DNA from: a virus
Direction: 5' to 3' (one strand)
Virus record (IMG/VR): IMGVR_UViG_3300014202_000270
Length of the DNA stretch: 64,000 nt
The notes beneath the pieces were generated by a model, which was not told where the DNA came from, did no database searches, and worked only from the letters and a program-made list of their open reading frames with translations. Position numbers and translations under genes: made by a program. Positions 31,399 to 33,120 of the stretch are shown piece after piece (positions within the stretch are counted from its first letter, which is position 1; the number at the start of each line of letters is the position of its first letter).

Positions 31399-31590
31399 GG
31401 TTTTTGGTTTTTAAAAGAGGTTATTCATCCACTAGAGTAGGATGATTCACTGTGTTTTACACCTAAAACTTTGATAAAGGTTTAACAAACCTATAAAGTA
31501 CTGCAGCACATTTTGTGTTATTCTGCATTGTTCTTAAATCAAAGAAAAACTGGTGCCCTCAACAACTTGGGAAGTTATTAAGTTTTTTAC

Positions 31591-31703
31591 CCCTCTGCAC
31601 TCAGTTGTAGTCCCACACTTTCGACTATCCATAGAAACCTATTTATGGTGACTACACCGCCTATGGTAGTATGTGGTTTACGTGTCTCTACTACTACAAC
31701 TGA
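31591..31703 (-). ncRNA. Candidate structured RNA element A
   Basis: 19-nt flank ccctctgcactcagttgta shared with element B; 11-bp closing helix 31601-31611/31693-31703. Confidence 0.5.
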
Positions 31704-31718
31704 AATGCATTAGGAATA

Positions 31719-31859
31719 TCATAATTTTACTAATAAGTTTAGCTCAACTGTATATTTTTTTTTATGACCGTCTACTACAGTAGCTATGTTTTCTTCAACA
31801 TTGTGTATTTCATAGACATGAGAATCGCCTTTTACTTTTACAAAATCACCTTTTTTCAT
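31719..31859 (-). CDS. Small hypothetical protein (46 aa, KOW/SH3-like start)
   Basis: Hand translation MKKGDFVKVKGDSHVYEIHNVEENIATVVDGHKKKYTVELNLLVKL. Confidence 0.55.
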   Translation of the reverse strand: MKKGDFVKVKGDSHVYEIHNVEENIATVVDGHKKKYTVELNLLVKL

Positions 31860-31896
31860 AATGTTTATTTTTAAAATGATTGATAATTAATTAGTT

Positions 31897-31998
31897 ATCC
31901 CTCTGCACTCAGTTGTAATAGTTTTAGTCCTATTGTTCCAATAACTACTAAGGTGAGACTCTACAATACTCACATTACAACTGCTCACCCCTTGGGAG
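31897..31998 (-). ncRNA. Candidate structured RNA element B
   Basis: Same 19-nt flank at 31899-31917; 10-bp helix 31910-31919/31974-31983; internal hairpins tattg/caata and gtgag/ctcac. Confidence 0.5.
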
Positions 31999-32254
31999 CT
32001 GATTAAAACGCTGACTGGTATATTATATCTTTACCTAAAAAGGATTATCCAGATATAACGATAGTCTATTAATCAGGTAGTTTCACATCTTATCACGAGT
32101 ATTCAAATAAGCTTTACGTGTTTAAGAAGTCTTACCTCTCCTAGGATGAATGTGCATCGGGGATAATGAAGCCAGCACTATTTAGCACACTATTTCTGGT
32201 TACAAGGAAACATTTGTCATAAGACCGCCGAGTTTCTTAGTGCTGGCTTTAATA

Positions 32255-32602: not shown

Positions 32603-33120
32603 AAAATATAGGTCGTTCAGATTATCCTGCTAATAGACCACAGCAGCTTGTTGAGGACTCGCAATCTTTGGTAGATCACTTACAAGGTTAGTATTTTCCC
32701 CCTGTCGGTTGTTATTTCTCATATAAATAGGATTCAACAGATTACCAGTCTGCATCATGTGGCTTAACACATATACTCCTAAATTAATATGGTTCGTCAC
32801 AAACCATTAAGCATCTACCTCTGTGACTTTCTTGAGATAGAGATAAGCGTCAACAAAGAATAAATTCTTTATAATACTTCTAAAGTTATATAACTTCCAC
32901 AACATATCAAGTTGCTTATAACTGCATGGTTTTTAAGTCTGCACAAACGCTTAATCATAGAGATTATATCTCATATGATACCATTACACTCTGCAAAAGT
33001 GTTTGATACTATCTATTTTACTTGCAGTAATAGATAGAATGGTGTCGTTGCCCCACATGCTTGTCAAGGTTTATCAACCTTAAAGAAAAATTTGGAAGCT
33101 TACGGTTTACCAACCTTGGT

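Follow-up and report, generated by a model that had tools for sequence, protein, structure and literature searches.

Twister-type RNA elements, probably no longer cutting, at the junctions of a tiny-gene cassette in a phage genome

Why should a 19-nt sequence, CCCTCTGCACTCAGTTGTA, occur exactly twice in 64,000 nt of viral DNA (hereafter the window, from IMG/VR record IMGVR_UViG_3300014202_000270), once on either side of a 46-aa gene, when shuffled sequences lead one to expect no copy at all? A preliminary description of the locus had taken the repeat for the conserved flank of two structured elements of about 110 nt, here B and A (Table 1), each closed by a helix with a compensatory base pair, and its basic observations are borne out: the two exact copies, the intervening gene (ORF46) and both helices are there. 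Every ORF near the two elements lies on the minus strand, and the elements are therefore read on that strand, where the motif UCCC-AAGGGGUGAG...AGUGCAGA-GGGA reported for B is likewise present. The MFE folds contain a 10-bp helix in each element: B has CAGUUGUAAU/AUUACAACUG and A has CAGUUGUAGU/ACUACAACUG, which differ at the ninth pair, A-U in the former and G-C in the latter. The fold z-scores are -3.3 and -4.0, respectively.

In a twister-type fold, the 19-mer forms the 3' strand and comprises the end of the P5 3' strand, an A, the P2 3' strand GUGCA, GA and GGG. We collected relatives by scanning viral contigs for the 14-mer CTGAGTGCAGAGGG, which yielded at least 120 loci, about 70% of which, among the matches listed, hold full copies (...UUACAACUGAGUGCAGAGGG plus a conserved 5' half). 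Read on the minus strand, the family consensus opens with UAAUGCACCA, followed by 4-5 bases and a 5-bp hairpin with the loop UUCCCAAGG. Expressed as modules, its 5' part runs N↓A-A (the arrow marking the cleavage position), P2 (UGCAC), CA, a linker, P4, the loop L4 just named and P4', and its 3' part runs P5 (CAGUUGUAAU...variable...AUUACAACUG), A, P2' (GUGCA), GA, GGG and a short P1. The variable interior of P5 spans 30-150 bases across the family and is replaceable by a 25-nt hairpin (L077:4763-4845).

A covariance model (R1) built from 30 copies (alignment A1) recovers 79 distinct full copies at 57-109 bits. In their alignment, pairing holds in 99.1% of cells, and compensatory changes, with both sides altered, are seen at 15 of 20 pairs; the covariation score is 0.354 versus 0.130 when shuffled, a value reached by none of 500 shuffles, and slid controls stay at or below 0.06. 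P2, P4, P5 and the CCC:GGG pseudoknot all covary among family copies. For example, P2 occurs in five covarying forms (UGCAC/GUGCA, UGUAC/GUACA, UGCGU/ACGCA, CACAC/GUGUG and CCUAU/AUAGG), and all five pairs of P4 covary beneath their loop. For the pseudoknot, a targeted scan for copies with a changed middle C of L4 returned eight family members, and all eight, with UUCACAAGG as L4, carry GAGUG on the 3' side, from which it follows that CCC:GGG covaries. The flanks, too, pair as a short P1, in which contiguous pairs average 2.49, shuffles giving 1.18.

The remaining core varies little. A-A follows the cleavage position in 79 of 79 copies and is preceded by U in 75, C follows P2 in 78, and GA stands before GGG in 78 to 79. 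In the pseudoknot PK1 (the 'NC' after P2 with G-N of L4), the C and G are near-invariant (78/79), hence there is no covariation to count, and copies with AAGA do not preserve the N:N' pair; a scan for variation at G34 of L4 returned decayed copies alone. Because the search patterns used to gather the sample prescribed parts of the core, ascertainment accounts in part for the invariance seen there.

The architecture is that of twister, a self-cleaving ribozyme reportedly described by Roth et al. in 2014. In twisters, P1, P2 and P4 are essential, P0, P3 and P5 are optional, and two pseudoknots engage conserved bases in L1 and L4 (PMC5408937), while descriptors of the class name N↓A, the 'NC' for PK1, a general-acid A and a general-base G (PMC11662667). 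A published twister reads GGTGCC-TAA-CACT-GCC-AATG-CCGG-TCCCAAGC-CCGG-ATAAA-AGTG-GA-GGG-GGCA (10.1101/2020.06.20.162982), and the P4/L4 of the rice twister is CCGG-UCCCAAGC-CCGG (PMC11662667). The family shares with these the order of modules (N↓A-A, P2, C, P4 with the loop U-CCC-AA-G-N, P2', GA-GGG, short P1), the L4 CCC:GGG pseudoknot and an optional long stem between P4 and P2'. Unlike them, it has a 5-bp P2, an L4 that ends in GG rather than GC and a P5 base conserved in sequence, and it is unmatched by the Rfam twister models: RF03160, RF02684 and RF03154 gave no match at E<=10 on the window, a canonical copy or the 83-nt minimal copy, nor did the twister-P1 model match the nearest relative compared (G001). 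It is thus by architecture, and not by a curated model, that the family is assigned to twister.

Elsewhere, Rfam returned only hatchet, group I introns, tRNA and tmRNA on 14 relatives, with nothing on the family elements; in the window it matched one hatchet ribozyme and two group I introns, with nothing on either element at the gathering score or at E<=10, and a tRNA scan of the window found none. Of the unknown non-coding RNA family that the preliminary description had proposed, the structure and the absence from Rfam stand, while the architecture proves to be that of a known class; its alternative idea of a ribozyme core was apt, since the conserved internal loop consists of twister L4, the P4 3' strand and the L1/pseudoknot strand. 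Integron attC sites, MITE terminal repeats, hammerhead and pistol were dropped because their core sequences do not fit. From these comparisons we infer that the family is a large, uncatalogued group of twister-type RNAs in crAss-like phages, predicted to be self-cleaving as the twister class is. Canonical relatives should cut at U↓A, and the downstream message would then carry the folded ribozyme at its 5' end. Our literature search found no paper linking twister with crAss-like phages.

The family divides into several forms. Class 1 is the plain consensus form. Class 2 carries two extra stems (GUGG-AUAUAAAGACUUCUUAG...CUAAGAUGUGAAA-CCAC and CUGAUUAA...UUAAUCAG), placed after the P4 5' strand and before the CCC of L4, which makes them an insertion inside L4 and not at the canonical P3 site of twister; both stems and P4 covary. 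In class 3, UAA and L4 are absent, a 5' C/U-run pairs with the GAGGG strand, and there is a small hairpin with a GNRA-type loop. The closing helix of this class covaries, with the 5' strands CCCC, CUCUC and UUUCUC forming CCCC/GGGG, CUCUC/GAGAG and UUUCUC/GAGAAA. A fourth form comprises hairpins without P4.

Class 3 RNAs, three-way junctions observed at L020, L033, L041, L042:6532, L105:667, L122, L400 and L457, keep the twister P2, the P5 base and the 3' strand, and a covarying 5' strand substitutes for the L4 pseudoknot; the class is a pseudoknot-free relative of the ribozyme, without a cleavage site. Such closed forms resemble twister-sister (RF02681) in their succession of P1, internal loop, P2 and multi-helix junction with no pseudoknot. 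However, their loop measures 2-3 by 2 nt, unlike the twister-sister catalytic loop with strands of 5 and 6 nt and a C↓A site (PMC11620745), and that site lies on the strand opposite to twister's. A twister-sister identity was rejected on the loop sizes and the lack of an RF02681 match.

Table 1. Features of the locus, in window coordinates (5' and 3' refer to the minus strand)
Feature	Position	Strand	Remark
Shared 506-bp block	31419-31924	-	B 3' module, leader, ORF46, A, motif
Conserved motif UAAAAAACUUAAUAACUUCCCAAGUUGUUGAGGGCACCAGUUUUUCUUU	31541-31590	-	independent; hairpin 31582-31558, loop UUCCCAA
Element A	31588-31718	-	P4-less module
19-mer copy 2	31591-31609	-	3' module of A
A P5	31702-31602	-	then A, GUGCA, GA, GGGG-UA
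A P2 5' strand UGCAU	31709-31705	-	then UU
A closing strand UAUUCCU	31718-31712	-	then AA
ORF46, 46 aa	31719-31859	-	conserved small protein
Element B, whole	31895-32166	-	expanded twister homologue, class 2, 272 nt
B AUAA	31898-31895	-	
19-mer copy 1	31899-31917	-	3' module of B: end of P5 3' strand, A, GUGCA, GA, GGG
B GGG	31901-31899	-	
B GA	31903-31902	-	
B P2 3' strand GUGCA	31908-31904	-	
B P5	31983-31910	-	
B P4 3' strand GGGUGA	31990-31985	-	
B L4, rest CUCCCAAG	31998-31991	-	
B extra stem b	32076-31999	-	
B extra stem a	32143-32077	-	
B P4 5' strand UCAUCC	32149-32144	-	
B P2 5' strand UGCAC	32156-32152	-	
B CGA	32159-32157	-	U↓AA in relatives
B closing strand UUAUCCC	32166-32160	-	
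12-bp perfect hairpin AAGCCAGCACUA...UAGUGCUGGCUU	32169-32249	-	left flank of variable slot
Hatchet ribozyme	32924-33087	-	Rfam RF02678, 64.1 bits, gathering score 51

Within this family, both copies in the window count as ordinary degenerate members. Element B is about 2.5 times longer than first described, its 5' part being extended to 32166 by alignment with nine class-2 relatives; the original size of ~110 nt was wrong for it. Where all nine relatives have UAAUGCACCA, B has CGAUGCAC-A. Its scissile region reads C-G-A: the adenine expected 3' of the scissile bond has become G or, alternatively, one A has dropped out, and B is, unlike twister, without the catalytic A. The C after P2, the cytosine of PK1, is missing too. 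Retained are P2 (UGCAC/GUGCA), the GA before GGG, L4 CCCAAGG with 145 nt inserted, and P4 by way of a one-base register shift (UCAUCC/GGGUGA). Both strands of the L4 pseudoknot (CCC and GGG) exist, but a 5' CCC competes for GGG: the 5' UUAUCCC is complementary to GGGAUAA, and the resulting helix is used in the MFE fold. The covariance model gives B 47.4 bits, whereas the 79 full copies in the alignment score 57-109 bits. Three other assemblies contain an identical B, whose sequence is therefore not an assembly error. The CCC-AA...AU changes recur in another class-2 copy, L022, and could represent an alternative state under selection instead of decay; no match to B's unique 5' core was found in viral contigs. 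Inside stem b, UAAUAUACCA (32017-32028, minus strand) is identical to UAAUGCACCA at 8 of 10 positions, and the covariance model prefers this site as the 5' core of B; as RNA contigs run through it, we take it for chance or a recombination scar.

Element A departs from twister in having no P4/L4 between P2 and P5, a segment deleted in its alignment to the model (38.9 bits, against 57-109 for full copies). Its scissile region is U-A-A, as in the family consensus, P2 is UGCAU/GUGCA with one G-U pair, and GA is present before GGGG. The C after P2 is absent here as well, and the GGG strand is all that exists of the L4:GGG pseudoknot. The MFE fold is one long irregular hairpin closed by UAUUCCU/AGGGGUA, and in both A and B the MFE fold pairs the 5' C-run with GGG. 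In L453, an ORF46 homologue lies between two P4-less hairpins, and the P5 interior of A is 86% conserved beside it.

RNA evidence for the locus consists of assembled contigs, not reads, from four metatranscriptome runs of a single study. Over B, the contigs are 100% identical to the window and cover 31901-32237 (X1), 31902-32177 (X2), 31902-32156 (X3) and 31953-32186 (X4). Three of the four cross the expected cut of B at 32158/32157 and three stop at 31901/2, and X3 starts at 32156, 1 to 2 nt from that cut. The four runs give contig cover at B and zero on ORF46 and A, a gap that in contig data proves nothing. The contigs agree with B being a stable, largely uncut RNA, of which they are a weak hint, since they come from that one study.

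The hatchet is the first of three ribozyme-type modules on the minus strand. Contigs at the hatchet end at 33082, 2 nt inside its expected C↓U site, and no linear contig passes its 5' cleavage site, a head-to-tail joint excepted. In two runs, at depths of 31 and 182, RNA contigs cover exactly the interval 32654-33082 (minus strand) and are joined head to tail from 33082 to 32654 with a 1-nt overlap. Either this RNA has a circular or tandem form of 429 nt, or the joint arose by template switching, as an artefact, where an abundant RNA ends. Conservation of the block 33090-32644, at 92% in G001 and 77% in L400, stops about 10 nt past the RNA end, a pattern that renders the small ORFs called inside the block doubtful. 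In L022, L045 and L002, a hatchet lies ~0.9-1 kb upstream of the first twister-type copy, as in the window, and hatchet plus twister-type copies form a recurrent ribozyme-rich module of small ORFs. The hatchet class (RF02678) shares GUGCAGA, a G-run and the intercistronic position with the elements and, like the twister class, cuts at its own 5' end; however, the elements were rejected as hatchet variants, their fold being different and the hatchet model not matching them.

The DNA between the repeats has a history of its own. A 315-bp unit separates the two 19-mers and comprises the 3' module, a leader, ORF46 and the 5' part and P5 of A. ORF46 has homologues at 69-87% identity and, identical copies included, five homologue clusters at 69-100%, with no PHROG family match and no tblastn match in deposited phage genomes, and identical copies of it occur in phages with different neighbouring genes. 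By BLAST, the window is 99.8% identical to L457 and L461 over 31924-31419 in a different gene background; this identity begins at 31924, inside the P5 3' strand of B, and a class-3 element lies upstream there. With L400 the identity is 100% over 31609-31420, beginning at the 19-mer of A, where L400 has an intact class-2 twister ending in the same 3' strand, and no ORF. G001 keeps the upstream hairpin and the downstream motif, with two closed class-3 three-way elements between them. The variable slot is filled differently in L400, G001 and L457, and the 315-bp unit stands behind different upstream elements in other phages. Breakpoints 31924 and 31609 lie in the two copies of the 3' module, and these breakpoints identify the two 19-mers as duplicated junctions of a 315-bp cassette, presumably exchanged by recombination. 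The earlier suggestion of a cassette boundary fits, as identity with other phages starts exactly in the repeated 3' module; that of an exchangeable, guide-like payload does not hold, the variable interiors being optional P5 stems with chance 10-12-mer matches alone within the window. On the left flank of the slot, the upstream hairpin region (32169-32249) is 96% identical over 85 nt to G001/L122; it follows directly after a 115-aa ORF and may be a terminator or processing signal before the variable slot.

Comparable exchanges are known from T4-type phages, in which the conserved motifs of PeSL promoter/stem-loop cassettes bound exchanges of small ORFs (PMC2839356, PMC4122927). As with PeSLs, short stem-loop motifs recur between the small ORFs of a plastic region and delimit the insertions, deletions and replacements by which close relatives differ. 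Unlike PeSLs, the repeated motif is a ribozyme-derived RNA fold, not a promoter-terminator pair, and the phage lineage is another.

A further sequence just beyond A (31541-31590) overlaps what had been described as a degenerate third 5' half of the elements (31540-31572). The sequence is real: it is 90% identical in ten Crassvirales genomes, occurs once in the window and recurs in at least 81 distinct contexts in viral contigs. It is, however, a separate motif and not part of the elements, for it lies behind a twister-like 3' strand in 3 of the 81. Its loop, UUCCCAA, resembles L4, yet the motif also follows complete twisters (L100, L400), and the idea that its hairpin is a displaced L4 of A is weakened by this independence, the twister strand being absent from 78 of 81 contexts. 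In crAss-like contigs this motif of ~45 nt reads AAAAACUYAAUAACUUCCCAAG-NNN-UUGAGGGCACCAGUUUCUU and often comes just after a terminator-like hairpin. The motif is possibly a phage promoter or regulatory hairpin; we found no description of it in the literature.

Taken together, we think it probable that both elements are altered members of the twister-type family, most likely non-cutting, and that the 19-mer is the junction of a recombined tiny-gene cassette. The elements would be modular intercistronic stem-loop RNAs of crAss-like phages, the complete form of which would be a twister-type ribozyme with a long P5. B would have lost cleavage through CGA for UAA, the missing C after P2 and the replacement of the pseudoknot by UUAUCCC/GGGAUAA, and would accumulate as a discrete stable RNA; A would have lost it with P4/L4 and would fold as a long irregular hairpin. 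Such RNAs may serve as structured leaders or insulators, and at the DNA level the conserved 3' module would act as a homology patch for cassette exchange. It seems unlikely to us that B still cleaves itself as a working twister, or that A does so with the UUCCCAAG hairpin downstream serving as a displaced L4, the message being cut before ORF46 and before the next gene. B does keep L4 CCCAAGG, P4, P2, GA and GGG, and one of its RNA contigs begins at 32156; A keeps UAA, P2, GA and GGGG, and a hairpin with a UUCCCAA loop lies 8 nt downstream, from which an H-type pseudoknot with GGGG is sterically conceivable. Natural twisters, moreover, tolerate many imperfections (PMC11662667). Mutating the general acid is nevertheless almost always detrimental and defects of PK1 are poorly tolerated (PMC11662667), and it is the adenine 3' of the scissile bond that in B is G or missing, and the C of PK1 that is absent from both elements. 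Three RNA contigs also bridge the site in B. For A, the downstream hairpin mostly occurs without a twister strand (78/81) and follows twisters that are already complete, and the homologue of A in L453 has neither GAGGG nor the hairpin.

The breakpoints lend themselves to another account, in which the repeats matter as DNA alone, as linkers promoting phage recombination, and the RNA structures are incidental relics. Near-identity does break exactly in the repeated module, the same slot has three different fillings in three relatives, and the base of P5 shows a sequence conservation for which a ribozyme has no need. We nonetheless hold this account to be improbable, given the strong family-wide covariation of helices, which includes the closing helix of the non-twister closed forms, and given that three runs show B as a discrete RNA sharing one end, the flanking ORFs not being represented in contigs. 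Very unlikely indeed is a new class of non-coding RNA unrelated to known ribozymes, with a ligand- or protein-binding loop and a guide-like exchangeable interior. The lack of an Rfam match and the high variability of the interiors speak for it, yet every nucleotide conserved in the internal loop has its place in a named twister module, the UCCC:GGGA pairing is that of the twister pseudoknot, whose covariation is proven, and the interiors show only chance matches in the window and can be stood in for by a 25-nt hairpin.

We tentatively raise one further possibility, namely that the family records a natural, selected conversion of twisters to non-cleaving structural RNAs that act as stable leaders and gene-moving homology linkers. 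The closed forms (B in the window, L022 and class 3 of G001, L400 and L457) would be its products: the 5' C-run would take GGG from L4, with the scissile U↓A and the PK1 cytosine lost together. The new closing helix of the closed forms itself covaries, and B, with its L4 still in place, could alternate between closed and twister folds as a two-state switch. If this conversion is true, ribozyme-off modules would be both stable leader RNAs and homology linkers that move tiny genes between phages.

Twister is a well-studied class whose biological roles are still largely obscure. The locus and its relatives add a large phage subfamily missed by current Rfam models, insertions at an unusual place within the catalytic loop L4, apparently non-cutting derivatives with the scaffold kept, and a double use of the ribozyme 3' strand as the junction for swaps of tiny-gene cassettes between phages. 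Questions about the purpose of such ribozymes, and about their decay or repurposing, become testable as a result.
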